IMG/VR virus record: IMGVR_UViG_3300000317_000001
Location: 1 to 60,980 of that record
DNA from: a virus
Taxonomy: Duplodnaviria; Caudoviricetes
DNA: 60,980 bases
Direction: 5' to 3' (one strand)
Shown here one piece after another: positions 434 to 60,816 of this stretch. Both the position numbers and the translations under genes were made by a program. The notes under the pieces were generated by a model. The model was given only the letters and a program-made list of their open reading frames with translations, did not search any database and was not told where the DNA came from. Position 1 is the first letter of the stretch; every line of letters begins with the position of its first letter.

Positions 434-1527
434 GAAATTTAAAAGAATATGATGAGTGGTTAAAAAGTTATTACAAGAGGCTAAAAGTTTCTAAAATTAC
501 ACCATTTAAATTTTCTGTTACAGATAGGCAGGAGTTTAAAAGATGCATTAGAAGATGGAATTATAGTTCATATAATGGTATGAGTATTGAACCTAAGGCA
601 CCAAATGTGAAATTATTATTTGGAACAGAAATCCATAGTGCACTAGAGTATTTTTACAAAAATACATTTTCATGCGTAGAATTTTTTAAGCAAAGATGGA
701 ACAACTATGTTGCCTATCAAAAGAAAAGAATGCTTGATCTCGATTTAACTGAACTAGAAGCGCATCTTCCGCTAGGGATAGCTATTCTAAAAGGCTATGA
801 AGAGTATGCAAATGATGATAAATGGAGTATTCTAGCAACAGAATTTGAAATCGAATATCCCCTAGTGGATAATGATGGAGAACCTATTTTAATTTGTAGA
901 AATGGTAATGCATCTAATTATGGAGTATATAACCCAATCGTGTGCGGCAGAATTGATTTAGTGATTTATGATGATAGTACAAAACAGTATTATGTAGTGG
1001 ATCATAAAACGGGAACTAATCATTTAAATCCAAAAGATCTTGAATGGGATGATCAGTTAACTATTTATAGCGCTATTTGTTCAAAAATATTTGAAACTAA
1101 GTTTAACGCAATGTATAATTTTATGCGTAAAAAAATACCTACTGTACCTAAAATACTCAAAAATGGAAGTTTGTCAAAAGCAGCAAATCAAGATACAACT
1201 TATGAAATTTATATGCAAGAAATTATAAATAATAACTTGCGGGTGCAAGATTACCAAGATATTTTAAGCACTTTTCAAACAAAACAAACTGGATTTTATG
1301 AAAGAATTACTTTGCCAAAATCTGAGTTGTGGAATAATTGTTTGGAAAATCAATTAAAACAAGAAGCACTCATGATGATAGTTGCTCTAGAAAATCAAGT
1401 AAATATATCAACTTGTACTTCAAGCTGTAGTTGGGACTGCAATTATCATATGCTGTGCAGAACTCAAAGTATTGGTGGAAATATTAAGCCACTAATAGAG
1501 CAATATTATCAGGAAAGGAGAACGTGA
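430..1527 (+). CDS. PD-(D/E)XK exonuclease (RecB/Cas4-like)
   Basis: FGTEIHSALE, GRIDLV..VVDHKT catalytic motifs, N-terminal C plus C-terminal CxxCxxxxxC cluster; adjacent to a Sak4-like ATPase and SSB. Confidence 0.85.
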   Translation: MRNLKEYDEWLKSYYKRLKVSKITPFKFSVTDRQEFKRCIRRWNYSSYNGMSIEPKAPNVKLLFGTEIHSALEYFYKNTFSCVEFFKQRWNNYVAYQKKRMLDLDLTELEAHLPLGIAILKGYEEYANDDKWSILATEFEIEYPLVDNDGEPILICRNGNASNYGVYNPIVCGRIDLVIYDDSTKQYYVVDHKTGTNHLNPKDLEWDDQLTIYSAICSKIFETKFNAMYNFMRKKIPTVPKILKNGSLSKAANQDTTYEIYMQEIINNNLRVQDYQDILSTFQTKQTGFYERITLPKSELWNNCLENQLKQEALMMIVALENQVNISTCTSSCSWDCNYHMLCRTQSIGGNIKPLIEQYYQERRT

Positions 1528-1531
1528 TTTT

Positions 1532-1759
1532 ATGGAAAAAAGTGATTGTGCAGAAAAGAAAGTGCCCTCTTCTTTGGGAGAAATACTGCAAAATTGGGTT
1601 AATGAAGAAGTAGTAGTAACTTGTGAAAATAAAAGTATGTATGGAACCTTAGTAACTTGTACCTATTTCAATAATGCGGTAGATGGTATATTATTAGCAC
1701 GTTGGGGATGGATTTCAATGGATTCTATTAAAAGAATAAATCTTAAAGGAGGAAGTTAA
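1532..1759 (+). CDS. hypothetical protein (possibly Sm-like small beta fold)
   Basis: RBS AAAGGAG; in operon; beta-rich pattern. Confidence 0.6.
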   Translation: MEKSDCAEKKVPSSLGEILQNWVNEEVVVTCENKSMYGTLVTCTYFNNAVDGILLARWGWISMDSIKRINLKGGS

Positions 1760-1760
1760 A

Positions 1761-2573
1761 ATGGCACTTAAACCGTTAATAAAAACAAGTGAAATAATTG
1801 GTACGGGAGTTGAAGGAGGCCTTGAAGGAATAGATGCTAGAGATAAATTTAGGTATTTAAATATTTTAATACATTCTCCAAGTGGACATGGAAAAACAAG
1901 CACTGTAGCTAGTGCTTGCGATGATGAACGAACTAGCCCAATATTAGTGCTAGATTGTGATGGTGGAGCACCATTAAGATTTGTTGGAAAAGATGCTTCA
2001 AAGTATACAATAATTGATATTAAAAGCATTGATGATGTTTCAGCGAATTTTAATTATTTAAACAAAGGTAGCCATCCATACAAGAGTGTGTTAATTGATA
2101 ACCTTGGTGCACTTCAAAAAGTTGGAATGTTTGAATTTGCAAATGCAAAAATACCAAATTTTCAGGATACAAAAGTTTGGAAAGATAATAAACAACCTGA
2201 AATACAACATTGGGGTAAGAGTCTTAACCAAATGTGTTTTATAATGCAAGCATTTAAAGATTTAAAAATGCATGTGTTTTTTACGACACTTTCCGCTAGG
2301 GTACTAGATGATTTAACTAAGAAAACATTTATAACCGTTAAGCTTCCAGGACAGCAATCTGATGAAATACCTAGTGTACCAGATATTGTTGGGTATATAA
2401 GTGTTGTAAAAGGAAAAGAAGGTTTAGAAAGATTGCTTATGACTCAACCAGATGGATCTGTTGATGCAAAAGATAGAACTGAAGCTTTAGGTGTTGGAAT
2501 TAAGCTTCCAAATGGTGGAAAACACGTTACTAAAATGCTTGATCTCATTTGGACTAAGTACAACATAAAATAA
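1761..2573 (+). CDS. Sak4-like AAA ATPase / single-strand annealing protein
   Basis: Walker A HSPSGHGKT, VLIDNL Walker B, AKDR motif; lies between exonuclease and SSB. Confidence 0.85.
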   Translation: MALKPLIKTSEIIGTGVEGGLEGIDARDKFRYLNILIHSPSGHGKTSTVASACDDERTSPILVLDCDGGAPLRFVGKDASKYTIIDIKSIDDVSANFNYLNKGSHPYKSVLIDNLGALQKVGMFEFANAKIPNFQDTKVWKDNKQPEIQHWGKSLNQMCFIMQAFKDLKMHVFFTTLSARVLDDLTKKTFITVKLPGQQSDEIPSVPDIVGYISVVKGKEGLERLLMTQPDGSVDAKDRTEALGVGIKLPNGGKHVTKMLDLIWTKYNIK

Positions 2574-2664
2574 TTTTTTAAAAACCCTTATTTTTCATTG
2601 TATTTCAATGGAAAATAATATATAATATAATTATAAGAAAATAAAAATTTAAGGAGAGATATAA

Positions 2665-3078
2665 ATGGCTATTATTAATTTTAAAAATGTATCTAGTGGT
2701 TTTGAAGTGTTACCAGTAGGAAAGTATTCCGTTGCGGTAAAGGAAATTAAGTTCAATGAAGAAAAAAATTATTTTAACTGGACTTTCGAAATTATTGCTT
2801 GTCTTGAAGATGAGTATGAAGGCAAATATGGTGGAAGAAAGTTATGGGCAATTACATCATTAAAGGAAAAAGCATTATGGAAGTTAAAAGATTTCTTATT
2901 AGCACTAGGTGCTACTGAAGAAGATTTAGATAGTGATGCATTTGAATTCGACCCAGATAATTTTGTTGGTGCAGAAGCAATAGCAATGGTAACTCAAAGA
3001 GATTATTTAGGAAAAATGCAGAATGATGTAGATTTAATACAAGAAAGTGCAGTAGAAGGATTAAGTTTATTTAAATAA
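2665..3078 (+). CDS. single-stranded DNA-binding protein (DUF669-like)
   Basis: FEVLPVGKY..WTFEI..GRKLW..ALWKLKDFLLALG pattern; position in the recombination module. Confidence 0.8.
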   Translation: MAIINFKNVSSGFEVLPVGKYSVAVKEIKFNEEKNYFNWTFEIIACLEDEYEGKYGGRKLWAITSLKEKALWKLKDFLLALGATEEDLDSDAFEFDPDNFVGAEAIAMVTQRDYLGKMQNDVDLIQESAVEGLSLFK

Positions 3079-3127
3079 TAAATGTGGAGCAGCATGCTGC
3101 TCCTAATAATAAAAGGAGGTAAAGAAA

Positions 3128-3295
3128 ATGGCTCAATTAACAGAGATGGTATCCATAGTATTATCAAAAGAACAAAAAGATGCTTTAGAAAAAGCAGCCG
3201 CAATTGATGGTAGAAAATTAAGTGCTGCAATTAGATTTGGTGCTTTGAAATATTACAATGTTCTTGAAGGAATAGACCTTATTGAAGCAGATTAG
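3128..3295 (+). CDS. ribbon-helix-helix (CopG-like) DNA-binding protein (55 aa)
   Basis: Hand translation MAQLTEMVSIVLSKEQKDALEKAAAIDGRKLSAAIRFGAL; AAGGAGGT RBS. Confidence 0.75.
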   Translation: MAQLTEMVSIVLSKEQKDALEKAAAIDGRKLSAAIRFGALKYYNVLEGIDLIEAD

Positions 3296-3306
3296 GAGGA
3301 AAACAT

Positions 3307-6075
3307 ATGTGGAGAAAGTTCTACGAAGTCTATATAGACACGTCAAGTGAAAGTGAAAGTCATGAAGTTAGAGTAACCTCTCCATTTAGATCTGATTCAA
3401 ATCCGTCATTGTACATTAACTTAAGTACAGGGCAGTTTAATGACTTCGGAGACGCTGATTTCAAAGGTGATCCAATCAATTGGTTAATGCTTGTACATGA
3501 AGCTTCTTATGAAGAAGCTTCAAGAATTGTAAAAACGTATACTCAAACGGGAAAACATCCATCTCCTCCATTGCAAGAAGAAGTGCTAGATTTTCATCAA
3601 CAACTTCTTCAAAGCAAGAATACTTTAAACTACCTTTCCACTAGGGGAATAACTAAACAAATTATCGACGAATATATGATTGGGTATGATGGAGATAGAA
3701 TCATCATACCAGTTATTATGTCAAATGGTATTTGCATAAATGCTAGGAAATATGATCCGAATAGTTCATCAAAAATGCTGCCATACCAAACTGGTTACGG
3801 GTCAGTAAAATTGTATCCCCTAGTGGATTATGATGCATCTCAACCAACATTTTTATGTGAAGGTGAATGGGATGCATTAGTTTTAAAAAGTTGGGGTTTT
3901 AATGCGCTTACAAATACTGGAGGTGCAAATACTTGGAAAAAAGAATGGTGCAATATATTAGGTACCAAGATATACATGTGCTATGATGGAGATGATGCTG
4001 GAAGAAAAGGAACAGAAAATGTAATTAGATATTTGGAAGGGTCTTCAAAATCTTTTGATGTGAAAATAGTTCCAATTCCTGAAGGAAAAGACATAACAGA
4101 TTTATATAAAGAAGGGTATAATGAGAGCAGTTTTAAAAAATTAATTGAAAAAGCTGCTCCACCAAGTGCACAAAAGGAAGAAACTATTGTACAGTTACCT
4201 AGATTTGATTTGTGCACTTCAATAAATGCAGAAAATAAAGGTGTAATGTGCAGATTAGCGTTGAGGGTTGTTGGGTACGATAACAGTCCGTATAATGTTC
4301 CTGTTGAAATTATTAGCTCATGTAGTGGTTCTCAAGATTTTGCTTGGTGCACAAGTTGTCCCTTATTTTCAACATCTGAAAAAAGAATGTCTATTCGTCA
4401 AGATGAGTTTTTGTTAAAGTTATTAAAAATTACGGATGTTGCGCAATTAATTGTTTTAAAAAACTTACTCGGAATTCCGAGTAAATGCTGTATTGTTAAA
4501 ATAAAAACAACTAAAAGCGTAAATATATATGAACTAATTGTAGCACCAGAGGTTGAACAGAGTGGAATGTCTAAATATGTACTTCAAGTTGCATTTGTAA
4601 TAACAGATGATATATCTTCAAATACTTCATTTTATTTTGATGGGAAAATGATTCCATCTCCTTGGCTTCAGAAGACCATTTTGTTTCTAAATAGTGCAGA
4701 ACCCGTACAACAACAACATCAAAATTTTAAAATGGATTCAGAAATTTTTAGAGAACTTTTCATTTTTCAGCAAGGCGATTTTACAATAAAAGAAAAACTT
4801 GCGGAAATACATAATGATTTTGAAAAAGTTACAGATATTATTGGCCGTCAAGATTTACTAACTAGTATTGATCTAACTTATCATAGCGTATTAAACTTTA
4901 AGTTACAAGGAAAACCTGTGGGTAAAGGATACGTAGAAATGCTCGTATTAGGCGATACGAGAACAGGAAAATCTGAAACAATTGAAGCAATGATGAAACA
5001 TTTTCAACTAGGAGAAATTAGCACAGCTGAGAATACTTCGTTTAGTGGTCTTGTTGGTGGATTACAGCAACAAGGAGATAAAAGATGGTTTGTTACTTGG
5101 GGAAAATTGCCTCAAAACAATGGCAAACTATTTATTATAGATGAAGCAAGTGGCCTATCAAAAGAAGACATAGGTAATATGAGTGGTGTTAGGTCAAATG
5201 GAGTTGCAGAAATTACAAAAATTGTAACGGAAAGAACAAATGCAAAAACTAGATTAATTTGGCTATCCAATCCAAGACAAGGTACTGGATTAGATACAAC
5301 TACATATGGTTGCTCTCTTATTAAAGAACTAATTGGAAATAATGAAGATATTGCACGCTTTGATTTTTGCGTATCTACTTCAAGAGAAGACGTAAGTCCT
5401 GAGTTAATAAATGCAAAAAGATCTTTTAAAGAAAATGCTCCTCTTAAATATTGCTCTGAAGCATGTAAATTACTTATCTTATGGGCTTGGTCTAGAACTC
5501 CTGAACAAATACATATTGATGAAGGTGCAGTTGATCTTATTTTAAAATATGCAATTGAGCAAGGGCAAAAATATTCTTCTTCAATTCCCCTAGTGGAAGG
5601 AGCGAATCAGCGTATTAAGTTAGCTAAATTAGCTGTAGCTATTGCGTGTAGATTGTTTTCAACTGAAGATGGAGAAAATGTGATTGTAAATAAAGAACAT
5701 GTGCAGTTTGCATATGATTTTTTAACGGAAATATACGCTAAGAAATCTTTTGATTATGAAGGGTATAGTTTAAATCAAATAAAAAATATTAAAGTTGCAG
5801 AAAGTAAAGTAGATGTAATTGCGTCTTATTTAAAAGCACATCAACTTATTGATGCATTTAATGCACCTTTTGTTACATTTCAAACGCTGAAGGAACAATG
5901 TGGTTTAAAAGATGATGACTTTAAAGCATTATTTAAAGATCTCATTGACGCGAAAATGCTAGAAGAATATAGAAGGGGCGAATATATAAAAACAGCACCT
6001 TTATTAAAACTAATCAAAAAATTACGAGAGGATGAGAGAAATGATACCAACAAAGAAAGTTCAAACTTTGTATGA
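3307..6075 (+). CDS. DNA primase (TOPRIM)-helicase (MCM-like AAA+) fusion
   Basis: CEGEWDAL and CYDGDDAG TOPRIM motifs; GDTRTGKS Walker A, SGLVGG, FIIDEA Walker B, SNP, ARFD. Confidence 0.85.
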   Translation: MWRKFYEVYIDTSSESESHEVRVTSPFRSDSNPSLYINLSTGQFNDFGDADFKGDPINWLMLVHEASYEEASRIVKTYTQTGKHPSPPLQEEVLDFHQQLLQSKNTLNYLSTRGITKQIIDEYMIGYDGDRIIIPVIMSNGICINARKYDPNSSSKMLPYQTGYGSVKLYPLVDYDASQPTFLCEGEWDALVLKSWGFNALTNTGGANTWKKEWCNILGTKIYMCYDGDDAGRKGTENVIRYLEGSSKSFDVKIVPIPEGKDITDLYKEGYNESSFKKLIEKAAPPSAQKEETIVQLPRFDLCTSINAENKGVMCRLALRVVGYDNSPYNVPVEIISSCSGSQDFAWCTSCPLFSTSEKRMSIRQDEFLLKLLKITDVAQLIVLKNLLGIPSKCCIVKIKTTKSVNIYELIVAPEVEQSGMSKYVLQVAFVITDDISSNTSFYFDGKMIPSPWLQKTILFLNSAEPVQQQHQNFKMDSEIFRELFIFQQGDFTIKEKLAEIHNDFEKVTDIIGRQDLLTSIDLTYHSVLNFKLQGKPVGKGYVEMLVLGDTRTGKSETIEAMMKHFQLGEISTAENTSFSGLVGGLQQQGDKRWFVTWGKLPQNNGKLFIIDEASGLSKEDIGNMSGVRSNGVAEITKIVTERTNAKTRLIWLSNPRQGTGLDTTTYGCSLIKELIGNNEDIARFDFCVSTSREDVSPELINAKRSFKENAPLKYCSEACKLLILWAWSRTPEQIHIDEGAVDLILKYAIEQGQKYSSSIPLVEGANQRIKLAKLAVAIACRLFSTEDGENVIVNKEHVQFAYDFLTEIYAKKSFDYEGYSLNQIKNIKVAESKVDVIASYLKAHQLIDAFNAPFVTFQTLKEQCGLKDDDFKALFKDLIDAKMLEEYRRGEYIKTAPLLKLIKKLREDERNDTNKESSNFV

Positions 6076-6146
6076 AAAAACAAAAAAAGAATTAAGGAAA
6101 GCTTTTCAAGAAGTTCAAGATAAAATAAACAATGGAGGTGATCGTC

Positions 6147-6605
6147 GTGAAAGTAACTAAGATATTTAATTTTTGTGCAGCACACAGATTAACCAACCAT
6201 GATGGACTTTGTAGAAATGTTCATGGGCATAGTTATAAATTAGAAGTAACTATGTGGAATGATGATTTGATAGAAGCAAGTGAGCCTTCAAGCGAAGGAA
6301 TGGTATTTGATTTTAATAAATTAAAAAAGCTAGTTGAGCCTATTGTTGCATTATTAGATCATTCACTTATTATATGGGACTCTCCAGATAATAAAGATCC
6401 ACTAGATTTATCACTAAAATTATTGAATACTAAAACTTATTTGATGAAATGTAGATCAACAACAGAAAATTTATGCGTCGAAATATATGATAAAATTTTA
6501 AATGAAATGGACTCTCAACATATATTTGATTGCTATTTATCAAAAGTAAAAATATGGGAATCTGAATCTTCATGGGTAGAATATGAAGGAGAGTGGAGCC
6601 ATTGA
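6147..6605 (+). CDS. queD: 6-carboxytetrahydropterin synthase
   Basis: FCAAHRL..CRNVHGHSY..DF..LDH..TTENL..WES. GTG start chosen after GGAGGTGA. Confidence 0.92.
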   Translation: MKVTKIFNFCAAHRLTNHDGLCRNVHGHSYKLEVTMWNDDLIEASEPSSEGMVFDFNKLKKLVEPIVALLDHSLIIWDSPDNKDPLDLSLKLLNTKTYLMKCRSTTENLCVEIYDKILNEMDSQHIFDCYLSKVKIWESESSWVEYEGEWSH

Positions 6606-7186
6606 AATATAAAGTGAATCAAATATTTACTAGTTTACAAGGTGAAGGAATACATATGGGTAAAACGGCTAATTTTATACGATTAGCTGGGTGCAACTTA
6701 TGTTGTAATTTTTGTGATACTTCGTTCAATACCTATAGCGAACTATCCACTAGGGAAATCATGGAATCTCTCGACGAAACAACGTTTATGACTGTAATAA
6801 CTGGTGGAGAACCAACATTGCATGATTTAACAGAGCTTATTAATGAAATTAAAAAGAGCTTTCCTGAAATGATTGTTGCGTTAGAAACTAATGGAACTAA
6901 TGAAACTGCTCAGTATGAAAAACTAGATTGGATCACGTGTAGTCCAAAAGAAGCAAATGATTATAAAATACATGCATTGTGCATTCCACATGAGTTAAAA
7001 TATGTTGTTGATGAAAATATTGAACTTAAAAATATTGCTGCAGGAAAAGCTCCAATAGGGCATATCTGGTTACAACCAGATGGTAATAATATGCAAACAA
7101 GTTTTACAAAATGTGTTGAATTAGTAAAACAAAATAATACGTTAAGAGTAGGAATTCAAATGCACAAACTTTTGAATTTTGAGTAG
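6593..7186 (+). CDS. queE: 7-carboxy-7-deazaguanine synthase (radical SAM)
   Basis: IFTSLQGEG, RLAGCNLCCNFCDT, ITGGEPT, ETNGT, SPK, QMHK. Confidence 0.95.
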   Translation: MEPLKYKVNQIFTSLQGEGIHMGKTANFIRLAGCNLCCNFCDTSFNTYSELSTREIMESLDETTFMTVITGGEPTLHDLTELINEIKKSFPEMIVALETNGTNETAQYEKLDWITCSPKEANDYKIHALCIPHELKYVVDENIELKNIAAGKAPIGHIWLQPDGNNMQTSFTKCVELVKQNNTLRVGIQMHKLLNFE

Positions 7187-7200
7187 AGGAGAATTAAAAA

Positions 7201-7767
7201 ATGAGTGGATTTAAGAAAAAGAAAATTAAAAGAGCTGTTAGAATGTTATTAGAGAGCATTCCTTTAGAGAATGCTGATCGGGAAGGGCTATTAGATACTC
7301 CTTCTAGAGTTGCACGAATGTATGAAGAAATATATTGTGGTTATTTAATTGACCCACAATCATATTTAGAAAGACACTTTGAATCTGATGGATATCAGCA
7401 GATGATAATTGTAAGAGATATTCCAATATTTAGCACATGTGAACATCATCTTGCAACTTTTAGTGGGGTTTGTCATATTGGGTATATCCCTAGTGGAAGA
7501 GTTGTCGGTATTTCCAAATTAGCTAGAGTTGCAGAAGCATATTCAAGAAGACTTCAAATACAAGAGCGTTTAACAAAGCAAATAGCGGATTGTATTACTG
7601 AAGTATTAAAGCCTAAGGGTGTGATTGTTGTTATAAAAGCAGAGCATACTTGCATGACAATGAGAGGTATTAAGAAAGCAGGTGCGCTAACTGTAACTTC
7701 TGAAATCCAAGGTGTGTTTTTAGAACCTACTGCAAAAGCAGAATTTTATGAAAATTTGAAAATTTAA
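7201..7767 (+). CDS. folE: GTP cyclohydrolase I
   Basis: REGLLDTPSRVARMY, STCEHH, GISKLAR, RRLQIQER, HTCMTMRG. Confidence 0.96.
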   Translation: MSGFKKKKIKRAVRMLLESIPLENADREGLLDTPSRVARMYEEIYCGYLIDPQSYLERHFESDGYQQMIIVRDIPIFSTCEHHLATFSGVCHIGYIPSGRVVGISKLARVAEAYSRRLQIQERLTKQIADCITEVLKPKGVIVVIKAEHTCMTMRGIKKAGALTVTSEIQGVFLEPTAKAEFYENLKI

Positions 7768-7780
7768 AGGAGTAAATTTT

Positions 7781-7909
7781 ATGAACAGTTGTCCAAAATG
7801 TGGATCTACTTTAACGAAAGTAGTTGGAAAGCATATTACTACGCTTACTTGCAATGATGAATATAAAAAAGATTGCAAATGGTCTACAGATTACTATACT
7901 CAAAAATAG
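7781..7909 (+). CDS. zinc-ribbon microprotein (42 aa)
   Basis: MNSCPKCGS...CNDEYKKDCKW; AAGGAG RBS. Confidence 0.7.
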   Translation: MNSCPKCGSTLTKVVGKHITTLTCNDEYKKDCKWSTDYYTQK

Positions 7910-7926
7910 CATAAAAAAAAATAAAA

Positions 7927-7972
7927 AAAAACTATGAAAAACATTGATTTTTCATAGTTTTTAATATATAAT
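7927..7972 (+). promoter_or_regulatory. promoter with -35 at the centre of a 15-bp perfect inverted repeat
   Basis: AAAAACTATGAAAAA-CATTGA-TTTTTCATAGTTTTT; TATAAT at 7967. Confidence 0.75.
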
Positions 7973-8003
7973 ATAAATATAAATAAAGAAAGGAGAATAC
8001 GAA

Positions 8004-9084
8004 ATGGAAAATTTTGAGCCTTGCGTTGGATGCGATGGAACAATTTGCAAAGGTTGTCCCAATGGTAAAAAGTGGAAATGAACTTTATTTGCGATAGTTG
8101 TAATTGTAGTATTGCAAAGGGATGTAGGTGTGCAGAATGTGGTAAGTTCTTTTGCTTAAATTGCTTAGAAATTTATGAAACTTTTTATCACTGCAGTGAA
8201 TGTATTAAAAAATTAAAAAGGAAATAGCTTGGCAATGAATGAAAAATGTAAAACATGCAACAAAGAAGGAATGCTTATAAAATGTGCAATATGTAGTGGA
8301 ATGTACTGCTCAACCTGTATAGAGTTTTACAACAGAAATACATTTTGTGCAAAATGTAAAAATAAAATACAAATGAAAGGAGGAAAATAAAATGGCAAGT
8401 GTAATGGAGTGTAAGAATGGAAAAGGATGCAAAGATTCAAGATTTTGCGTAGAAAAATTAAACCCAAGCCTAGTTAAGAAAATAATTGGTGGAAATGAAT
8501 ATTATGAATGTACAAAATCAATGTCAGAAATGAAAGCGTGTAAATTTTATAAATGAGGAGGATGTTCAATGCCAGTATATGTAGAACCTTGCAGTAATCC
8601 CAATTGTACACATGCTGCATTGCATGATTGCAGCATGTGCTACAAAGCATTTTGCTTATTGCATATCGAAAGAGTAAAAAGTACTTATTATTGCTTAACT
8701 TGCTATAACAAGTTAGATAAAAAATATTTGTAAGGAGTTTTAAAAATGGCTAAAACAGAATGTTATAGATGTAGCAGAGAATACACAGAAAAATGCCAGC
8801 AGTGTTTTGTAGAAACTTGTGACTTACATGGTCAAAAAATTGGTGGCAGATGGATATGTGATTGGTGTGATTACAATAATAAAATAAATTCAAAAAGGAG
8901 ATGAATAATAATGGCACTTTACGCAATTAGGTGTGAAGGAAAAATAAATGTCAAGCAAAAAGATGGCACATATAAAGAAGAAACATGTGGTGCAATCTGT
9001 GGAGGCATTATATCAAAAAATGGAGATATTCAATATGCGTGTAGTACAAAAGGTTGTAACTGGACTAAAATTGTAAAAGCATAA
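8004..9084 (+). CDS. operon of seven Cys-rich microproteins (8004-8081, 8078-8227, 8235-8390, 8392-8556, 8569-8733, 8746-8904, 8911-9084)
   Basis: Hand-translated ORFs of 25-57 aa, tightly packed, most with GGAG RBSs, each with 4-9 Cys/His in CxxC-type pairs. All are below the ORF-track cutoff. Confidence 0.8.
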
Positions 9085-9171
9085 AATGTAAAAAAGCAAC
9101 TTTCCACTAGGGAAATTGAAAAATTTCAGGATCCCTAGTGGATATTGGAGAATACTCAAGTAAATCAAAGT

Positions 9172-9243
9172 TTATAGCCGAATTTAAATTTTCTAATTAC
9201 ATATTTATATGAAAACGTTATTTAAATTCGGCTATAACCATTA
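9172..9243. repeat. tripartite palindrome family, copy 1
   Basis: TTATAGCCGAATTTAAAT..CATATTTATATG..ATTTAAATTCGGCTATAA; perfect 18-bp arms. Confidence 0.92.
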
Positions 9244-9337
9244 TATAGAAGAAAATATTTTTTTATAAATATATGAAAAAACATTGATTTATATTGAAAA
9301 ATATTATATAATAAATATATAAAAAACTAAGGAGGAA

Positions 9338-13261: not shown

Positions 13262-13272
13262 TAGGAGGAAAT

Positions 13273-15971: not shown

Positions 15972-15993
15972 TATAGAAAGCGTATAAAACCAA

Positions 15994-16023: not shown

Positions 16024-16029
16024 GTTTAT

Positions 16030-19969: not shown

Positions 19970-19991
19970 CGCTAAAATAGGAGGAAATCAA

Positions 19992-47392: not shown

Positions 47393-47431
47393 AAACTTTT
47401 ACAGTTTCCCTAGCGGAAAGAGGTGATTTAA

Positions 47432-49367: not shown

Positions 49368-49423
49368 TCGGGAATAAAGAAAAATTCAGGTTCCCTAGCG
49401 GATTTTGTGAAAGGAGTGATATT

Positions 49424-51918: not shown

Positions 51919-52593
51919 ATGTCCGATAGAATAATAGATCGCATAACAAAGTTATTCGCATTGAGTAATAGTAACTTTGAAGAAGAAGCAAAAGCTGCTC
52001 TTCAAAAAGCACATTTACTAATGCTCAAATATAATTTAAGTATGCACGACATATCCGCTAGGGAACATGAAATACCAATAATGTCACAAACGGAATGTAA
52101 AATAAATACACTAGTATCTAAATTACTAGCTCAAGTAGTTGCGGATAAATTTCGTTGCCGATTATTGGCAAGAATCCCTAGCGGAAAGAGCGGTAAAAAT
52201 ATGTATGCTACATTTTGTGGTTTTAAAGAAGATGCACAAGTAGCTGCTACTGTATTTAAATATGCTCTTGAATATTTAACAAGACTTAGAAATTTAGAAG
52301 CGCAGAAAATGTATGATAAGGGGTTTTCTACTAAAGGATTTAGCTATAGTTTTGGAAGAGGATTTGCAATTGGGTTATCAAATGAATGGCAAGAACAATG
52401 CACAAGTGAGTATTCTTTAGTGTGTACAGTGCCATTAGCAGTTGCAACATTTGCGAGTAAACTAGCGCTTAAAAAATGTGGTGTTGTTTCGCAAGATTTA
52501 GATTTAGAGTCTTTTAATTTAGGTGAAGAAAAAGGTAGAGAATTTGGGTCAAATAAAAATGCATTAGAGGAGGAAATAAAAAATGACAGTTGA
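51919..52593 (+). CDS. DUF2786-domain protein
   Basis: IIDRITKLFALSNS..EEAKAAL.KA..LM.KYNL; SF..GF..G. Confidence 0.82.
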   Translation: MSDRIIDRITKLFALSNSNFEEEAKAALQKAHLLMLKYNLSMHDISAREHEIPIMSQTECKINTLVSKLLAQVVADKFRCRLLARIPSGKSGKNMYATFCGFKEDAQVAATVFKYALEYLTRLRNLEAQKMYDKGFSTKGFSYSFGRGFAIGLSNEWQEQCTSEYSLVCTVPLAVATFASKLALKKCGVVSQDLDLESFNLGEEKGREFGSNKNALEEEIKNDS

Positions 52594-52798
52594 TAGAATA
52601 TGTAAAATTTTACAAGATAATAATTTTTATCCTGATTGCAATATGCACATTTGGGTGCGTGAAAATGACATTTATATTACGGATGAGTTTTTGTGCGATT
52701 GGGAAGGATCTGAAAGTGAATTTCAAGAATTTTTACACTGTTTAATTAATCAAAGAAAGAATAAGATGGAAAATCCACTAGGGAAACTAAGTGATTAA
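52583..52798 (+). CDS. hypothetical protein
   Basis: GAGGAGG RBS. Confidence 0.55.
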   Translation: MTVDRICKILQDNNFYPDCNMHIWVRENDIYITDEFLCDWEGSESEFQEFLHCLINQRKNKMENPLGKLSD

Positions 52799-53057: not shown

Positions 53058-53879
53058 ATGAAATTTAATGAAGAAAGAACATTTGGAGTAGAAATAGAAT
53101 TTTTTAACGCTGAAAGGTGTATGGTATATGAAGCATTAGTAGCAAAAGGAATTAAAGTAAAAGTTGAAAATTATAACCATACCACTAGAGATTATTGGAA
53201 AATAGTAACAGACAGTAGTGTAAATGAAAGTGGTTGCTATAATGAAAATGGTAGTGGAAATGAGATAGTAAGCCCAATATTAAAAGGACTAGATGGTTTA
53301 GAACAATTAAGACTAGTGTGTGAAGCATTAAAAGAATGCAATGCACAAGTGGATAAAACTTGTGGAGTACACATACATCATGGAGTAGATGATTTAGATT
53401 TTGAACAAATTAAAAATGTGTATGCTTTAAATATTAGATACGAAAACGTAATAGATTCAATGCTACCAAGCAGTAGGAAAAACCAACGCTATTGCAGAGA
53501 ATTAAATACAGTAAGTGCAGAAATAAATGAATATTTAAAAATGATAAAAAATTTAAAAAACTATCAATCATTACAATATTGGTATGATAGCAGATATTAT
53601 AAGTTAAATCATAAAAATTATAGAACAAGGGGTACTTTAGAATTTAGACAACATAGTGGTACTATCGATTTTGAAAAAATAGGCAGTTGGGTAATCTTTA
53701 CGCAGCAATTAGTAGAAAGATCAAAAACAAGCGTTCAATATAAAACAAATATTAGTAGTTTTCAAACATTAAAAGAGTGTTTAAATGTAACTAAAAAAGA
53801 TGGTGATTTAGTATTTGCCGCATTTAAGTTTTTAGAAAGTAGAATTAAACATTTTGCTCAAAAAAGGAGGGTTGCATAA
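53058..53879 (+). CDS. putative amidoligase (COOH-NH2 ligase type)
   Basis: TFGVEIE, WKIVTDSS, EIVSPIL, TCGVHIH, RYYKLN, GTLEFRQHSGT. Confidence 0.88.
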   Translation: MKFNEERTFGVEIEFFNAERCMVYEALVAKGIKVKVENYNHTTRDYWKIVTDSSVNESGCYNENGSGNEIVSPILKGLDGLEQLRLVCEALKECNAQVDKTCGVHIHHGVDDLDFEQIKNVYALNIRYENVIDSMLPSSRKNQRYCRELNTVSAEINEYLKMIKNLKNYQSLQYWYDSRYYKLNHKNYRTRGTLEFRQHSGTIDFEKIGSWVIFTQQLVERSKTSVQYKTNISSFQTLKECLNVTKKDGDLVFAAFKFLESRIKHFAQKRRVA

Positions 53880-54198: not shown

Positions 54199-54523
54199 AT
54201 GCTTAAAAAATTGCTAGAAATGCACAATGAAGTATGTGCTAAATGTGGAAGCAAACGCAATCATGAAGTTAATTGGGTAAATCCACATTACACAATATGT
54301 GAAGATTGTGGGTACACATGGTAATTAAATCAATTAAAAGGAGGAGAGCAAAATGACTTATAAATGTGATATCAGAGGATGTCTTGAAGATGTAGAAAAC
54401 AGCTGTGAAGCAAATGGATGTAATAATAATAAAATATGCGATATGCATACACATGTAGTTTGTGGAAGAAATAATAAAAGTATATTTGTATGCGAGGAAT
54501 GTCACAAGAAAGGAAATGTGTAA
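54199..54523 (+). CDS. two Cys-rich microproteins (54199-54324, 41 aa; 54353-54523, 56 aa)
   Basis: CAKCGS..CEDCGYTW; CDIRGC..CEANGC..CDMH..CEEC; both have AGGAGG RBSs. Confidence 0.75.
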
Positions 54524-54804
54524 TGGAGCAATTAACAAAAGTACCTGAGGATTTCACTTTGAAATCCTCAGTTTCCCTAGTGGAAAGTGTGTTTCAAGAA
54601 ATTTATACAAACATTCACAATGAAGAATTGTATGTAATAAGAAAAAATGAAAAGATATTGTTTATGTCTTGCAACAAATACGCGTTTCAATGTGCTTTAA
54701 ATTTAATTAGCTTTGGAAATAAGCCTCTTGAGAAATTATCCGATTTATCAAAAGTAGTGCCAAATAGAAAACAAAGGAGAGATAAAAAATATGGAAAGCG
54801 TTAA
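54523..54804 (+). CDS. hypothetical protein
   Basis: TAATG coupling gives start MEQLTKV. Confidence 0.55.
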   Translation: MEQLTKVPEDFTLKSSVSLVESVFQEIYTNIHNEELYVIRKNEKILFMSCNKYAFQCALNLISFGNKPLEKLSDLSKVVPNRKQRRDKKYGKR

Positions 54805-55631: not shown

Positions 55632-56255
55632 ATGCTTAAGAAAATTTTTGAATGGTTACATGTTGATGAAGAACTTGTATTAAGATGGACTCCAGAAGGT
55701 TTAAGTGTTCGATTATATGAAAACATTTGTGGTCAACAGTATTGTGTTTCTCATATAATATCACCTTCTGAAAGGTTAGCGTTTGATGATATAATGTGTG
55801 AATGCTTACTTGTTAAAATGAGACGAGAAATGCAAGTTGTAAAAGATCAATGCTTAAAACCAGACGTACTAGAAAAACGTAAAAATAGATTTAAAAATCA
55901 TATCCAAGGTCAGTTTTAAGCAGAAATCCGCTAGGGAATCAAAAAATTAAAATTCCATGTTCCCTAGTGGATTTTGTGTAGAGGAGGAATATTTATGAAA
56001 CGACTAAATGCACAAGGTTATAAAAGAGTAAATGAAATTGCATTAAAGTACAGAATGTGTGTAGTGGAAATTACTGATATGGGTGAATATAGTCATTGGA
56101 GGCAAAATTTTTGGACCGGATATCAATTTATGGATATTTGTCAAAAAGATGCAAATTATATTTTTAAACTGGATGTTGCATTTGAATATTTTGATTTAGA
56201 AGATGAAACTTTCAAATTAGAAGAAAAGTGTAATTGTATTGATTGCAGAAAATAA
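55632..56255 (+). CDS. two hypothetical proteins (55632-55919; ~55995-56255)
   Basis: GGAGG RBSs; ORF track. Confidence 0.55.
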
Positions 56256-56864: not shown

Positions 56865-57068
56865 TCAAAATATTAAAATTTTAGGTACCCATATATTTTT
56901 AAAATATATGGGTATTTGGTTGAAAATTCCGGATTAAACGGTTTTATATATTTAAAATTAAATAATATAAGGGTTGGTATTTTTTAATGAATATACCGTT
57001 TTATTTTGGTAGCATCATTCAAAAATTCCGCTAGGGAACATTTTAGGTAAAAACGCAAATAAATAGTG

Positions 57069-57151
57069 CAAAATATTAATGGATATAGGCGAATATAAAT
57101 TGCCAAATTTCATATTTATATGAAAACGAAATTTATATTCGACTATATCCA
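57069..57151. repeat. tripartite palindrome family, copy 9
   Basis: CAAAATATTAATGGATATAGGCGAATATAAAT..CATATTTATATG..ATTTATATTCGACTATATCCA. Confidence 0.92.
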
Positions 57152-57550: not shown

Positions 57551-58081
57551 ATGACAGTAGAAAATGCAGGAATACCTGTTGATGTAAGAACTGAAACGGA
57601 TTTAGTTTCCCCTAGTAGAAAGAAACAAGCACCTAGAAGGATGTTCTTCAAAATGGCAGATATCAACAAATATTTTCATTCACTTGAAAAAATAGGTGAT
57701 TTTACACTACCTATTACAGATCAAAAAGTATTTGAGGAAGAAGTTATAAAAGCACTAGCATCATTAAATCAAGGTGAATTAGATTGCATTGATTTTGGCC
57801 AAGCAGAAATTCCAGTTGATATGTTAAAAGTTGCATATACAAATTCTAAACTTAGCTATACTGAATTGAGAGCTAAGTTAAAGAAAGAAATTACTGATAC
57901 AGCAGTTCTTAAAAGAACAATTACTGGAGCGGTACTTCATTTTTGGAAAACTTCAATAATTGAAGCAAGAATGCTTGCTGAAGGTATTCCACTTAGGAGT
58001 AAAAAAGGAACTAAAACAACAGCAACAGCAGATGCAGCTAGTGAGATGGTATCTCCAGTTGCAGAAGCAGAAAAAATTTAG
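57551..58081 (+). CDS. hypothetical protein
   Basis: Promoter at 57488; AAGGAG RBS. Confidence 0.75.
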   Translation: MTVENAGIPVDVRTETDLVSPSRKKQAPRRMFFKMADINKYFHSLEKIGDFTLPITDQKVFEEEVIKALASLNQGELDCIDFGQAEIPVDMLKVAYTNSKLSYTELRAKLKKEITDTAVLKRTITGAVLHFWKTSIIEARMLAEGIPLRSKKGTKTTATADAASEMVSPVAEAEKI

Positions 58082-58219: not shown

Positions 58220-58306
58220 TTGAGGATGCTCGAGAGGTTGAAGAGTATTGCCATAATGGCATAAAAGGCGTAACTGCTTTCAGGAGTTCGAATCTCCTTC
58301 CTCAAT
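58220..58306 (+). tRNA. class II tRNA-like element with non-canonical anticodon arm (pseudo-tRNA or mimic)
   Basis: Acceptor TTGAGGA/TCCTCAA; D arm CTC-GAGAGGTTGAA-GAG; variable arm AAGGC-GTAACT-GCTTT; T arm AGGAG-TTCGAAT-CTCCT; no encoded CCA. Confidence 0.7.
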
Positions 58307-58491: not shown

Positions 58492-58608
58492 GGAAAAATT
58501 TCAGATTCCCTAGCGGATAGTCCGAAATTTATTTTAAAAAACTATTGATTTATATTGGAATTTCATATATAATATATAATATAAGAAATATTAAAGGAGG
58601 AAATAAAA

Positions 58609-58749
58609 ATGTTTGAAGTTTGTAAAAATGGTAGTGGATGCTTATATAGCACTGCTGTAAAGAAAATCGATGGTACTACAGTATGGGTTTGCCTGTTAGG
58701 TAAGAAAGAAAGAGAAAAATGCCAAAAGAATATGGCAGGATGGGAGTAA
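58609..58749 (+). CDS. Cys-rich microprotein (46 aa), paralog of 8392-8556
   Basis: CKNGxGC..VKKIxG..C..E...C shared with the 8392 ORF; promoter at 58544 and AAGGAGG RBS. Confidence 0.72.
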   Translation: MFEVCKNGSGCLYSTAVKKIDGTTVWVCLLGKKEREKCQKNMAGWE

Positions 58750-58753
58750 AGCT

Positions 58754-59203
58754 ATGATTGAAAAGATAGTAGCAATTGATCCAGGAGTACATTCTGGAAT
58801 AGCGGAGTTTGTTATTCGTGAAGATAAAAAAATTGCAATTTTAAGAAAGATACACGTGTATCCTGTAAATGAAATGCACAAGTATATTAGCTTCTTTTTA
58901 GATGATACTGATTTGGTAATCCTAGAGCGTTTTGTTAACCCATACAGCAAATTAACAAAAGACGCAATAACTACAATTGAAATGTGTGGTGCAGTAAAAC
59001 ATGAAACTTATATATGCGAAGTTAAATTAATAACTTGTGTGCAATCTCAAAAAGAAGGTTACATATCTTTTGCAAAAGAATTACTAGATGATGTGCATTT
59101 TGAAGGAAAACAGCATTGTGTTGATGCTGTTGCACACGGATTAAGGTATTGCGTAAAAACTTTAAAAATGGAAGTGGGTAGTGTAGAATGCAACTTGATG
59201 TAG
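58754..59203 (+). CDS. RuvC-like Holliday junction resolvase
   Basis: IVAIDPGVHSGIA, VILERF, H..DA.AH. Confidence 0.75.
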   Translation: MIEKIVAIDPGVHSGIAEFVIREDKKIAILRKIHVYPVNEMHKYISFFLDDTDLVILERFVNPYSKLTKDAITTIEMCGAVKHETYICEVKLITCVQSQKEGYISFAKELLDDVHFEGKQHCVDAVAHGLRYCVKTLKMEVGSVECNLM

Positions 59204-60816
59204 TAGGTTCTAGGCTGTTATGTACGGATGCAGATCCAAAAGATCAAAAAATGTTAATGAAGTTTTATGGAGCATCTAAAACCACTAAGGGAATTTCATT
59301 TCCAATAGAACCCCTTGTTGTAAGATATTTCATAGCATTTGTACCAAGTTGTGAATTATCAAAGGAAGTTCAAAAATTTTACAATGATTTTCTTGTTGAA
59401 TTTGACAAATTGATGCAAATCAAGCAAGGGGAATGGACTAATTACAGTTTCCCTAGTGGAAATAGCGTTTTACCATTAAAAGAACATCAAAGAATAGCGC
59501 TAGCATTTTTTACAAGAAATAATAGATTTATATTAGGCGATGAAATGGGGCTTGGAAAAAGTTGTTCTGCTTTAATGTGTGCTTTTCATAGTTCAAAAAA
59601 AGTGTTAATTATATGCCCTAGTTATTTAAAATATAATTGGTACCGAGAAATTGAAAAATGGTTAGGTGAAGAAGTAGTAGAAACTGTGCTGTGTGATGGA
59701 GACAGATCCGTTAGGGAACTTGGCATAAAATTAAACAAGAGATGGACTATTGTAAATTATGAAATGTTAAGACCTCAAAGAGCAAGAGGTGGATATCCTG
59801 AACTATTTGCAAAGCAATGGGATATGGTTATCATTGATGAAGCACATAGAACAAAAAATCCGAAAGCACAGCAAGTTGTAGGTATTAAAAAGTTAAAAAC
59901 AACTAATATGATTATGCTTACTGGAAATCCAGTAGGTAATTATCCTCAAGATATTTGGCAATTGCTTAATATTTTATATCCTAAGAGATTTACAAGTTTG
60001 TGGACTTTTATTGATTATTTTTGTGATCAGATAGATGCATTTTTTAGCAAAGAGATTGTAGGTATTAAGAAAAACAAGCTTAAAGAACTACAGTATATTT
60101 TACAGCCAGTGCTACTTAGGCGTATGAAAGAAGGTTTGCCAGAAAAAATACATAAAGATATTTATGTTAAAATGCAAGGTAAGCAATTAAAAGCCTACAG
60201 GGAAGCAAAGCAATTTAAGATTAATAAAATTGGAGGAGATTTACGAATTATTGATTCTAAGCTAGAAATGATAATACGTCTGCAGCAAATTGTTGCAAAC
60301 CCATCAATTTTAGAAATTGATGCTTCTAGCATAATTGAAGAAACAATACTACAATTAATTTCTGATATTGGAAAAACAAAATTTATTGTAGGTACTAAGT
60401 TTGTTGTTGCTGCACAAGAGATGTACAATATGCTATTAAAAGCAGATATTCCAGTAAGTTTAATTACTGGAAATGTAAAAGCAGAAATGAAAGATAAAAT
60501 TATTGAAAATTTTAAAAGGCAACCCTTTCATGTGTTGGTAGGAAATATTGATGCCATGAGTGAAGGTCTTAATTTAGATGAGTGTGACCACATGATATTT
60601 GCAGATAAAAGTTGGTCTCCTGCAACAAATCAACAATTTGAAGATCGCATACACCGAATGAATAGTACTCGAAACAAATACTATTATCATATTATTGTAA
60701 GTGATAGCGTTAGTGAAAAGCGTGAAAAAATGTTACGTGAAAAAACTGAAATGCTTGATTCAATATTGAGGGATAAAGAATTAGTTGATGAAATTTATTG
60801 TAGTGTTTTAGATTAA
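59188..60816 (+). CDS. SNF2-family helicase
   Basis: GDEMGLGKS, ICP..LK.NW..EI, IIDEAH, LTGNP, EGLNL, QFEDRIHR. Confidence 0.92.
   Translation: MQLDVVGSRLLCTDADPKDQKMLMKFYGASKTTKGISFPIEPLVVRYFIAFVPSCELSKEVQKFYNDFLVEFDKLMQIKQGEWTNYSFPSGNSVLPLKEHQRIALAFFTRNNRFILGDEMGLGKSCSALMCAFHSSKKVLIICPSYLKYNWYREIEKWLGEEVVETVLCDGDRSVRELGIKLNKRWTIVNYEMLRPQRARGGYPELFAKQWDMVIIDEAHRTKNPKAQQVVGIKKLKTTNMIMLTGNPVGNYPQDIWQLLNILYPKRFTSLWTFIDYFCDQIDAFFSKEIVGIKKNKLKELQYILQPVLLRRMKEGLPEKIHKDIYVKMQGKQLKAYREAKQFKINKIGGDLRIIDSKLEMIIRLQQIVANPSILEIDASSIIEETILQLISDIGKTKFIVGTKFVVAAQEMYNMLLKADIPVSLITGNVKAEMKDKIIENFKRQPFHVLVGNIDAMSEGLNLDECDHMIFADKSWSPATNQQFEDRIHRMNSTRNKYYYHIIVSDSVSEKREKMLREKTEMLDSILRDKELVDEIYCSVLD

Follow-up and report, generated by a model that had tools for sequence, protein, structure and literature searches.

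Among the dispersed DNA words described in phages, stoperators and localized nick sites come close to the one analyzed here. Stoperators are asymmetric sites present in dozens of copies per genome; their orientation follows transcription, and among relatives they vary along with the repressor (PMC6550527; PMC9283540). In the Cluster A mycobacteriophages (L5, Bxb1 and relatives), which are temperate, they are 13 bp long and are read by a monomeric helix-turn-helix (HTH) immunity repressor (PMC6550527). In Pseudomonas phage tf, 14 exact TACTRTGMC sites and 3 near-variants were reported, and LUZ24-like relatives have similar site positions with a main consensus one base apart, a pattern read as co-evolution of a nickase with its sites (PMC3517423). 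Here we study a 60,980-bp stretch of DNA (hereafter the window), the tailed-phage record IMGVR_UViG_3300000317_000001, through which the decamer CCCTAGYGGA is repeated on both strands, within and between genes. This decamer is strongly supported as a selected, oriented cis-acting signal that results neither from chance nor from coding bias.

Enrichment of the word and selection on it

Recounting across the whole window retrieved 49 exact matches to CCCTAGYGGA, 28 on the plus strand and 21 on the minus strand, the same count and coordinates as had been claimed in an earlier annotation made from the letters alone (the sequence-only reading). That reading had expected well under one copy by chance, and the mean of 100 dinucleotide-preserving shuffles was indeed 0.01, with none of the 100 reaching 49; read backwards, the word has no match in the window. 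As that reading had also estimated, 34 copies lie in coding sequence, in several frames and with rare codons, and 15 are intergenic. The coding copies use all four frames that are free of an internal TAG, yielding the peptides P/S-L-A/V-D/E, P-S-G, S-A/T-R-E/G and P-L-G. The codons involved are scarce in this genome, where Pro is written as CCC in 5% of cases, Ser as TCC in 4%, Ala as GCG in 8% and Leu as CTA in 12%.

We then exchanged codons among synonymous positions within each of 82 genes, keeping both the protein and the codon usage, the control by which the sequence-only reading had proposed that its claim be judged. Over 500 runs the total averaged 15.59 copies with a maximum of 20, including the 15 untouched copies outside the gene set, so that about 0.6 coding copies are expected (at most 5 in the 500 runs) as compared to the 34 observed. 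The copy in the major capsid gene (38564) is built solely from the rare synonymous codons CCC CTA GCG over a conserved D-P-L-A-D peptide, which a relative (contig L058) writes as CCG TTA GCA; the capsid copy is new in the window lineage, having arisen by codon choice alone. The synonymous-shuffle excess, the rare-codon capsid site and the presence of sites at orthologous positions in relatives (see below) together indicate selection on the word, and the earlier claim of a selected DNA-level signal therefore holds.

The word is also sharply bounded. Only 6 one-mismatch variants occur, and 49 of the 57 CCCTAG and 49 of the 51 CTAGYGGA occurrences belong to it. Around it the flanks are more weakly conserved, between −6 and +17 (C-A-k-k-T-T, core, W-a-t-t-G-c-G), with no difference between the plus and minus sets. 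These flanks show no stem covariation, with 19/49 and 23/49 flank positions pairing, and a hairpin was rejected for this reason. A promoter was likewise rejected: there is no second conserved downstream element, the distance to 17 TTGATT-N17-TATAAT sites varies, and some copies lie 14 nt from a start codon. With respect to insertion in the manner of miniature inverted-repeat transposable elements or repetitive extragenic palindromes, the copies do not fit such a pattern: in the genes for the capsid, PolA, the exonuclease and the chaperone they lie over codons that align with those of homologs, with one of the four PolA copies lying in a 4-residue insertion.

A palindromic counterpart in relatives

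Loci of relatives were reached through homologs of the capsid (44 loci) and of the polymerase (80 more). The two nearest lineages have both structural and replication genes in common with the window: R1 (contigs L055 and L238), with a capsid 73% and a polymerase 60-63% identical to those of the window, and R2 (contigs G006 and G007), in which the tail, helicase, exonuclease and capsid proteins are 35-65% identical. Both carry a perfect palindrome, TTCCACTAGTGGAA, together with single half-sites, CTAGTGGA, within and between genes, and their counterpart of CCCTAGYGGA is CCACTAGTGGA. The density of half-sites is 0.57-0.88 per kb in the four R1 and R2 contigs, as compared to 0.80 per kb in the window.

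The half-site common to the window and these relatives is CTAGYGGA, to which the window word adds a required CC on the other side. When aligned at CTAG, the core of the relatives, CACTAGTG, is symmetric, whereas that of the window, CCCTAGYG, is composed of C-C-C-T on one strand and C-R-C-T, ancestral-like when R is A, on the other. The sole degenerate position (Y) therefore mirrors the new invariant C. A single palindrome can no longer contain both orientations in overlap, which accounts for the single copies seen here, for the roughly twofold number of loci, and for the close pairs in the (−,+) order of the palindrome halves.

For 13 sites of the relatives the gene or junction has an alignable counterpart in the window, and six of these sites coincide with window copies, five of them codon-precisely and one at the same junction. 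Both palindromes in the R1 polymerase gene match copies of the window, at 15136(−) and 15810(+); the R2 exonuclease site matches 860(+), and the chaperone-gene site of both R1 and R2 matches 44361(+). The sixth, an R2 site at the junction before the gene that follows 48879-49367, matches 49393(+) in position but not base for base. The chance of six coincidences within ±10 nt, counting this positional case, is about 4×10−8 (binomial). Seven of the 13 relative sites, and most window sites, lack a partner, showing that sites also turn over; the conservation and turnover that the sequence-only reading had suggested looking for among related phages are thus both found. Conversion involved a synonymous Pro change in the exonuclease gene (CCA CTA GTG GA to CCC CTA GTG GA) and an A>C change in the polymerase gene. 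In the chaperone gene, where the palindromes of the relatives read V/I-P-L-V-E, CCA became TCC, a Pro>Ser replacement in the window. The word is the asymmetric derivative of the 14-bp palindrome TTCCACTAGTGGAA, and hence not unique to this phage in kind; although the proteins have diverged by 40-60%, sites have stayed in place, and their sequences have changed together.

Searches with the extended word, CANGTTCCCTAGYGGA, retrieved 46 stretches of viral contigs with one copy each, only the record itself having several. Among genome contigs there were at least 120 stretches, with single matches among those listed, and among metagenome contigs at least 116 stretches matched the 16-mer, with a single match each among those listed; two of the 116 carried two 10-mers, and none is a relative. 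Five complete relatives (G001-G005) have only structural genes in common with the window, and their enriched words are unrelated. In G001, G002 and G003 these words form local tandem arrays and were set aside as not dispersed. The arrays have 23-45-bp units, for example aattccctgaggttttccctagg repeated about 13 times, and lie at 13509-13644 in G001, at 38908-39328 in G002, and at 50505-50806 and both ends in G003 (L102-L105); they are probably origins or packaging sites. G004 carries a palindrome, TTTGCCGGCAAA, dispersed at about 9 loci, and in the 56-kb phage G005 (L109-L111) an asymmetric word of its own, ATCCCTRGTAAA, is dispersed in 15 copies over both strands, genic and intergenic, with a TCCCTRG core in common with the window motif. 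Although dispersed, neither word could be tied to the window array. Four further contigs with several CTAGTGGA copies (L416, L417, L397 and L406) were rejected, since the copies are peptide repeats in large genes without homology to the window. In R1, the polymerase gene is interrupted by about 870 nt (L238:1508-2379) that are absent from the window gene (alignment residues 546/545), which may represent an intein or else an intron that carries a homing gene.

Position, spacing and orientation of the copies

The 49 copies are listed below with their strand and setting. ORF, open reading frame; (−,+) pair, neighbouring copies in that strand order.

768-777, minus, antisense in the PD-(D/E)XK exonuclease gene (P-L-G)
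860-869, plus, sense in the exonuclease gene (P-L-V-D); orthologous to palindrome G006:19376 in R2, CCA>CCC synonymous
2292-2301, minus, antisense in the Sak4-like gene
3637-3646, minus, antisense in the Toprim-MCM primase-helicase gene; (−,+) pair with 3818
3818-3827, plus, sense in the primase-helicase gene
5588-5597, plus, sense in the primase-helicase gene
6746-6755, minus, antisense in the QueE-like gene
7488-7497, plus, sense in the GTP cyclohydrolase I gene (I-P-S-G)
9103-9112, minus, intergenic; left arm of a 40-bp near-palindrome with 9133
9133-9142, plus, intergenic; right arm of the 9103/9133 pair, upstream of promoter-like site 9284
10415-10424, minus, antisense in the amidase gene; (−,+) pair with 10707
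10707-10716, plus, sense in the dGTP-diphosphohydrolase-like gene
13460-13469, plus, sense in the PolA gene (S-L-A-D); within a 4-residue (12-nt) insertion relative to R1 and other homologs
13797-13806, minus, antisense in the PolA gene (P-L-G over conserved P-G-G)
15136-15145, minus, antisense in the PolA gene; orthologous to palindrome L238:2613 in R1
15810-15819, plus, sense in the PolA gene (S-P-S-G); orthologous to palindrome L238:3291 in R1, one base differing (A>C)
18278-18287, minus, intergenic
19058-19067, plus, sense in ORF 18874-19134
19940-19949, minus, antisense in ORF 19583-19969
21493-21502, minus, intergenic
21859-21868, plus, sense in ORF 21741-21929
22551-22560, minus, antisense in ORF 22368-22922
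24095-24104, minus, just past the 3' end of the only leftward operon, in the orientation of the operon
24612-24621, minus, abutting the ribosome-binding site of a leftward ribbon-helix-helix (RHH) gene (ATG 24598), same orientation
25869-25878, plus, sense; located at the end of RHH-like ORF 25732-25908 and immediately ahead of the start of the next gene
26992-27001, plus, intergenic; 6 nt upstream of the TTGATT-N17-TATAAT site 27008
27931-27940, plus, sense in ORF 27059-28036 (XepA/YomS-like N-terminal domain)
30112-30121, plus, sense in ORF 29594-30199, upstream of the large terminase gene
33053-33062, plus, sense in ORF 32449-33201
35064-35073, plus, sense in a variable stretch of the portal gene
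36155-36164, minus, antisense in ORF 35699-36232; (−,+) pair with 36347; the only minus copy between 24.7 and 44.1 kb
36347-36356, plus, intergenic, before the ribosome-binding site of the protease/scaffold gene
38564-38573, plus, sense in the major capsid gene; D-P-L-A-D conserved in relatives, rare synonymous codons only
40085-40094, plus, sense in ORF 39124-40572
42948-42957, plus, intergenic, between genes 42033-42911 and 43119-43463
44154-44163, minus, antisense in ORF 43851-44297; (−,+) pair with 44361
44361-44370, plus, sense in chaperone-gene ORF 44327-44551 (V-S-L-A-D); orthologous to palindromes G006:2582 (R2) and L055:5985 (R1)
47408-47417, plus, intergenic, 14 nt before ATG 47432
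48365-48374, minus, antisense in ORF 47432-48868
49393-49402, plus, before a ribosome-binding site; same gene junction as G006:7625 in R2
52054-52063, minus, antisense in the DUF2786 gene; (−,+) pair with 52176
52176-52185, plus, sense in the DUF2786 gene
52774-52783, minus, antisense in ORF 52583-52798
54575-54584, plus, sense in ORF 54490-54804
55927-55936, minus, intergenic; (−,+) pair with 55962, 35 bp apart
55962-55971, plus, intergenic, before a ribosome-binding site
57027-57036, minus, in the 690-bp intergenic region before ORF 57551-58081
58508-58517, plus, intergenic, 27 nt upstream of the TTGATT-N17-TATAAT site 58545
59451-59460, plus, sense in the SNF2-type helicase gene

Considered together, the copies are more evenly spread than random sets, with a coefficient of variation (CV) of the gaps of 0.66 versus 0.97 and a largest gap of 3,047 bp versus a random mean of 5,566 bp (both P ~0.0008); that no gap exceeds about 3 kb had been noted before. 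The 28 plus copies follow each other at gaps of 939-4,010 bp (mean 2,175, CV 0.35), and 0 of 20,000 random sets were as even, whereas the gaps of the 21 minus copies (CV 0.88) do not differ significantly from random. The largest plus gap spans the only leftward operon, which holds two minus copies; when these are counted as sense (n = 30), the CV is 0.35 and the largest gap 3,248 bp. With respect to transcription, therefore, 30 copies are sense, spaced every 0.5-3.2 kb, and 19 are antisense, and regular spacing is a property of the sense series only.

Nine of the 28 plus copies lie within 100 nt upstream of a start codon, several abutting a ribosome-binding site, as compared to 2 of the 21 minus copies and 13.6% of random positions. 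The sequence-only reading had described the array as not aligned with transcription; this part of it does not stand, given the far more regular sense series (CV 0.35 versus 0.88 antisense) and the enrichment of sense copies before starts. Of the minus copies, 14 fall within 0-24.6 kb and 6 within 44-57 kb, but just 1 within 24.7-44.1 kb (post-hoc Fisher p = 0.014). Nine neighbouring pairs are less than 350 bp apart; eight of them are (−,+), with their CCC ends facing each other, one is (+,−) and none is same-sense (binomial, 1×10−4).

The phage genome and its occurrence

The window is a complete virus record with a 79-bp exact terminal repeat and about 31% G+C, in which the plus strand holds nearly all genes. 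Morphogenesis genes are of the tailed-phage type (large terminase, portal, protease, major capsid, tape measure). Replication and recombination genes encode a PD-(D/E)XK exonuclease, a Sak4-like protein, a Toprim and MCM-like primase-helicase (ORF 3307-6075, in which a Toprim_2 domain was located), a family A polymerase that combines UDG-like and 3'-5' exonuclease domains, RNase H, a helicase of the SNF2 type and a RuvC-like protein. The polymerase gene (13273-15894) has an N-terminal UDG-superfamily domain, a fusion also seen in metagenomic homologs.

A 7-deazaguanine pathway is encoded as well, comprising GTP cyclohydrolase I (FolE), QueD and QueE, as well as Gat-QueC. QueD, QueE and FolE lie at 6132-7767, and a dATP/dGTP diphosphohydrolase-like protein, a DpdA3-like transglycosylase and Gat-QueC at 10565-13261. 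The DpdA3-like protein (260 aa; 11086-11868) is 27-31% identical to DpdA3-type transglycosylases of Campylobacter phage CP220, Cellulophaga phage phiST and Flavobacterium phages. Since the DpdA3 family is reported to modify genomes completely by replacing all G (10.1101/2023.04.13.536721), the DNA of this uncultured phage is, by analogy, probably heavily modified. The host looks like a Gram-positive bacterium, to which an LPXTG protein and the XepA/YomS-like domain point.

Profile scans (Pfam, PHROG, NCBIfam) took in about 80 ORFs, and two ORFs each were searched against PDB sequences and the ESM Atlas. Among the scanned ORFs, which leave many small ORFs without annotation, no nickase, methyltransferase, ParB or integrase was found, and the six frames of the window had no match to tyrosine integrase (PF00589), ParB_N (PF02195) or HNH profiles. 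An Rfam search returned no family, megablast against phage isolates gave no match, and searches with the capsid or PolA protein singly did not find close relatives; at the protein level the nearest phage isolates are 25-34% identical.

Twenty public soil and wetland runs among those listed (2012-2019, 9 named studies) contain at least part of the stretch 30000-39999, and 9 of the 20 contain half or more of its words; no RNA dataset containing the phage is among the listed runs. Contigs from 4 runs are almost identical to positions 1-20000 of the window, and with 14 variant positions in the 20 kb and none inside the 19 sites there they are too uniform for a test of site conservation. Since near-identical copies of the phage thus occur in independent soil and wetland assemblies, an artefact, which the sequence-only reading had entertained, is ruled out as the origin of the word.

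Several other features were observed. The promoter-like element TTGATT-N17-TATAAT occurs 17 times on the plus strand, including at 7944, 9284, 16502, 17178, 17456, 18342, 25506, 27008, 57488, 58545 and 60840, and once on the minus strand; its −10 region is often the palindrome TATTATATAATA (11 sites), the second most enriched long word of the genome. Adjoining the leftward operon is a 550-bp AT-rich, repeat-rich intergenic region (25178-25732), possibly an origin of replication or a control region of complex design. Its direct repeats are four copies of ACCATATAA, two tandem copies of a 22-bp unit, TAATTTAAGGGTAATAA[G/A]CCCG, and a repeat of 34 nt. Two long intergenic regions have an 18-nt word in common, CATATTTATATGAAAACG (9200-9217 and 57111-57128), each copy sitting within a longer inverted-repeat element downstream of a motif copy. 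The single tRNA gene (58220-58306) encodes tRNA-Leu (UAA), which fits the commonest Leu codon, TTA (52%). The protein with the LPXTG cell-wall anchor signal is encoded at 20635-21435, and an Amidoligase_2 enzyme at 53058-53879, shortly downstream of the DUF2786/DUF7168 protein (51919-52593).

Candidate readers and alternative explanations

In the sampled genomes the word does not behave as a host chromosomal word, and close relatives use a different one, so that a reader encoded by the phage is the economical assumption; probably it is a sequence-specific protein whose specificity shifted between lineages. Recognizable DNA-binding candidates in the window are one XRE-type HTH protein (9642-9866), two BRO-N proteins and four small RHH-like proteins. 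The RHH-like paralogs, in a lytic-looking genome, are encoded at 3128-3295, 24135-24416, 24413-24598 and 25732-25908, two of them in tandem on the minus strand:

24135-24416, minus, RHH-like protein A, 93 aa; a candidate for one half of the motif reader
24413-24598, minus, RHH-like protein B, tandem paralog of A with 49% identity over 63 aa; candidate half of the reader

Proteins A and B differ in the predicted DNA-contacting strand (TCTIQF and VCTAQF, respectively), and a motif copy abuts the ribosome-binding site of the tandem pair. The reading that we rank first, with a probability of roughly 0.38, is that the array works in the manner of stoperators, as an orientation-dependent block or insulator of transcription exerted by an RHH protein on double-stranded DNA. 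In the relatives, an RHH homodimer would read the symmetric core CACTAGTG; in the window, a heterodimer of the tandem paralogs (24135-24416 with 24413-24598) would read the hybrid core, whose halves would be the ancestral-like C-R-C-T and the new C-C-C-T. Such a predicted passage from a homodimer on a palindrome to a heterodimer on a hybrid site fits the anatomy of the sites, and both the asymmetry of the site and the Y at the mirror of the new invariant C would follow from it; the palindrome would then be expected alongside a single RHH gene, and the hybrid site alongside two. The bound protein would block or insulate transcription by orientation, at regular intervals along operons and in some cases next to ribosome-binding sites. 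This reading was placed first because regular spacing is linked to the sense orientation, copies lie close to start codons, the palindromes of the relatives are of the dimer type, and co-variation is known for stoperators and their repressors.

Several observations weigh against it. The RHH assignment comes from weak Pfam matches under the curated cut-off (DUF6290, E-values 5×10−4 and 6×10−3), and the RHH profile had no match in the R1 and R2 fragments, which are partial and include neither the region of the leftward operon nor that of the 7-deazaguanine pathway. Some 19-21 copies out of 49 run antisense to transcription, and their conservation equals that of the sense copies. No lysogeny module was found: the integrase (PF00589) and ParB_N profiles lack a six-frame match, while a serine recombinase and a homolog of the Cluster A Rep were not specifically searched for. 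If most G were replaced through the 7-deazaguanine pathway and the DpdA3-like protein, major-groove reading of a G-rich site would be altered. Finally, an even 2-kb spacing on one strand fits signals linked to replication at least as well.

Nearly as probable as the stoperator-like reading is a second one, in which the word is a polar signal of replication or recombination recognized on single-stranded DNA. It might fix the points at which the Toprim-MCM primase-helicase starts lagging-strand primers, or be a phage-specific Chi-like word that tames a helicase-nuclease (the SNF2 helicase with the PD-(D/E)XK exonuclease); the plus series would serve rightward (rolling-circle) forks or ends, and the minus series leftward forks from an origin near 25.5 kb. 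The array would then be a strand code private to the phage, a 10-nt word every ~2 kb on the lagging-strand template with a thinner opposite-strand set falling off from the origin, telling the phage machinery where to start primers or stop degrading; in it, recognition would have switched from the palindrome to the asymmetric word, some 50 sites being rewritten together even where this altered amino acids of conserved proteins. In keeping with such a signal, the 2.2-kb spacing of the plus series equals the size of Okazaki fragments, the minus copies thin out with distance from the 25.2-25.7 kb region (14, 6 and 1 by region; post-hoc p = 0.014), the helicase and exonuclease genes are adjacent and kept in R2, and a palindrome is the cheapest route to one word on both strands. 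The invariant CTA is the initiation trinucleotide of Firmicute DnaG-type primases (PMC2978363), the phage primase being Toprim-type, and, with the template rich in C 5' of CTA, primers would be G-rich although the genome has 31% GC. Chi likewise accumulates through phage coding sequence, at about 1 per 1.9 kb in phage LLS (23 sites), but Chi-rich phages show a strand bias of ~7:1 as compared to 28:21 here (PMC12315714). Moreover, known primase words are 3-5 nt and Chi words 5-8 nt long whereas this word has 10 nt plus flanks, the (−,+) order of the close pairs would make primers converge, the flanks (19/49 and 23/49 positions pairing) lack the covariation of a hairpin-type priming signal, and the position of the origin is putative. 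To our knowledge, no phage-encoded Chi system has been described, which also counts against a signal of this type; we also know of no phage-encoded Chi-like or fixed-site Okazaki priming system of this kind. The copies may alternatively be nickase sites, the packaged DNA carrying a localized single-strand interruption at each one as in T5, phiKMV-like phages and tf. The word is equally sharp (49 exact against 6 one-mismatch variants; 14 and 3 in tf), relatives have syntenic sites as among LUZ24-like phages, and terminal repeats and a family A polymerase are present here too. We nevertheless consider nicking unlikely, since the sites of T5, the phiKMV-like phages and tf all lie on one strand (PMC3517423) as against 28:21 here, opposite-strand pairs 30 and 35 bp apart (9103/9133 and 55927/55962) would produce fragile double-strand breaks, and neither a six-frame HNH match nor another nickase-like protein was seen among the scanned ORFs, many small ORFs being unannotated.

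Three further explanations carry little weight. That the word directs or excludes 7-deazaguanine modification, as a DpdA target, loading site or exempt site, is suggested by the encoded FolE, QueD, QueE, Gat-QueC and DpdA3-like protein and by the sequence preferences of other DpdA enzymes, GA and GGC (PMC7544227, PMC10484667). It is nonetheless very improbable, as the DpdA motifs in these sources have 2-3 nt, DpdA3 phages are reported to be completely modified (10.1101/2023.04.13.536721), and a modification target explains neither the enrichment nor the even spacing nor the conserved positions. A selfish or mutational by-product, spread by copy-and-paste or biased repair without benefit to the phage, would be consistent with copy 13460 lying in a 12-nt insertion relative to homologs, and scarce one-mismatch variants are also expected from biased conversion. 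However, most coding copies overlay existing codons without indels, the positions persist across deep divergence, and a sense-strand spacing far more even than random is not a product of drive, leaving this with only a slim chance. Equally hard to credit is the hijacking of a host factor, in which the copies would mimic a host chromosomal word (a Chi, Noc or ParB-type site) bound by a host protein. The Chi of Bacillus subtilis is AGCGG, which the Y=C form of the word contains, the TTCC...GGAA arms presumably resemble those of Noc and ParB sites, and the host appears Gram-positive. Yet AGCGG outside the motif is not enriched (by simple arithmetic expectation), no ParB-family reader was found in the six frames of the window (PF02195), the extended word had single matches only in the at least 120 genome-contig stretches, and the different word of close relatives argues for a phage-borne reader. 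The sequence-only reading had also proposed candidate hosts as a place to look for the word, and no enrichment appeared there: among 522 sampled genomes it reached at most 20 copies in 401 Bacilli and 12 in 121 Clostridia, often below a reversed control word.

Comparison with known systems

In the open-access papers and preprints available to us, an evenly spaced two-strand word array running through phage coding sequence, or a switch of such an array from palindrome to asymmetric word, was not described; nor, in the available text on stoperators, nick sites and Chi, was a near-periodic 2-kb spacing on one strand, which points to a process tracking along the whole genome. The array clearly shows how, in essential phage genes, selection on a DNA word overrides not only codon usage but also the amino-acid sequence. 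An evolutionary record is preserved as well, the same sites being used across deep divergence while the word went from symmetric to asymmetric, and this offers a natural experiment in the joint change of a DNA-binding specificity and dozens of its targets. If the tandem RHH pair were the reader, gene duplication would have turned a palindromic operator into an oriented one. In addition, given the 7-deazaguanine pathway, the reader may need to recognize modified G, which is of interest for protein-DNA recognition and for modified-DNA tools.

The C1 operators of phage P1 resemble the array in that one regulator reads many asymmetric dispersed sites, some in inverted pairs; they are, however, located at promoters, fewer in number and 17 bp long, and we know of no report of such sites being written through conserved coding sequence at regular spacing. 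The Chi-rich lambdoid phages LLS and MD8 also carry a polar word far above chance through coding sequence, about 1 per 2 kb, but in their case it is the Chi of the host itself, a word common in the host chromosome, strongly biased to one orientation and clustered toward one end (PMC12315714); in the window both orientations are used with even spacing, and no sampled host is rich in the word. The nick sites of T5, the phiKMV-like phages and tf are, like the window word, exact 9-10-nt words with one or two degenerate positions, very few near-variants, and positions kept among relatives with differing consensus, in genomes with terminal repeats; the known ones all lie on one strand, at 4-14 sites (PMC3517423), as compared to 49 on both strands here, some 30-35 bp apart in opposite orientation. 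Stoperators resemble the array in being short asymmetric words in dozens of genic and intergenic copies, with syntenic sites, a consensus that differs between relatives with divergence, and an orientation linked to transcription; they are predominantly in one orientation (PMC6550527), whereas ~40% of the window copies are antisense. The window further differs in the perfect palindrome of its relatives, in having no match to a tyrosine integrase or ParB_N, in its apparently low-GC Gram-positive host, and in its predicted RHH-type reader. The array belongs with the genome-wide cis-site arrays that have a co-evolving reader, and there is a substantial chance that the mechanism underlying it is new.

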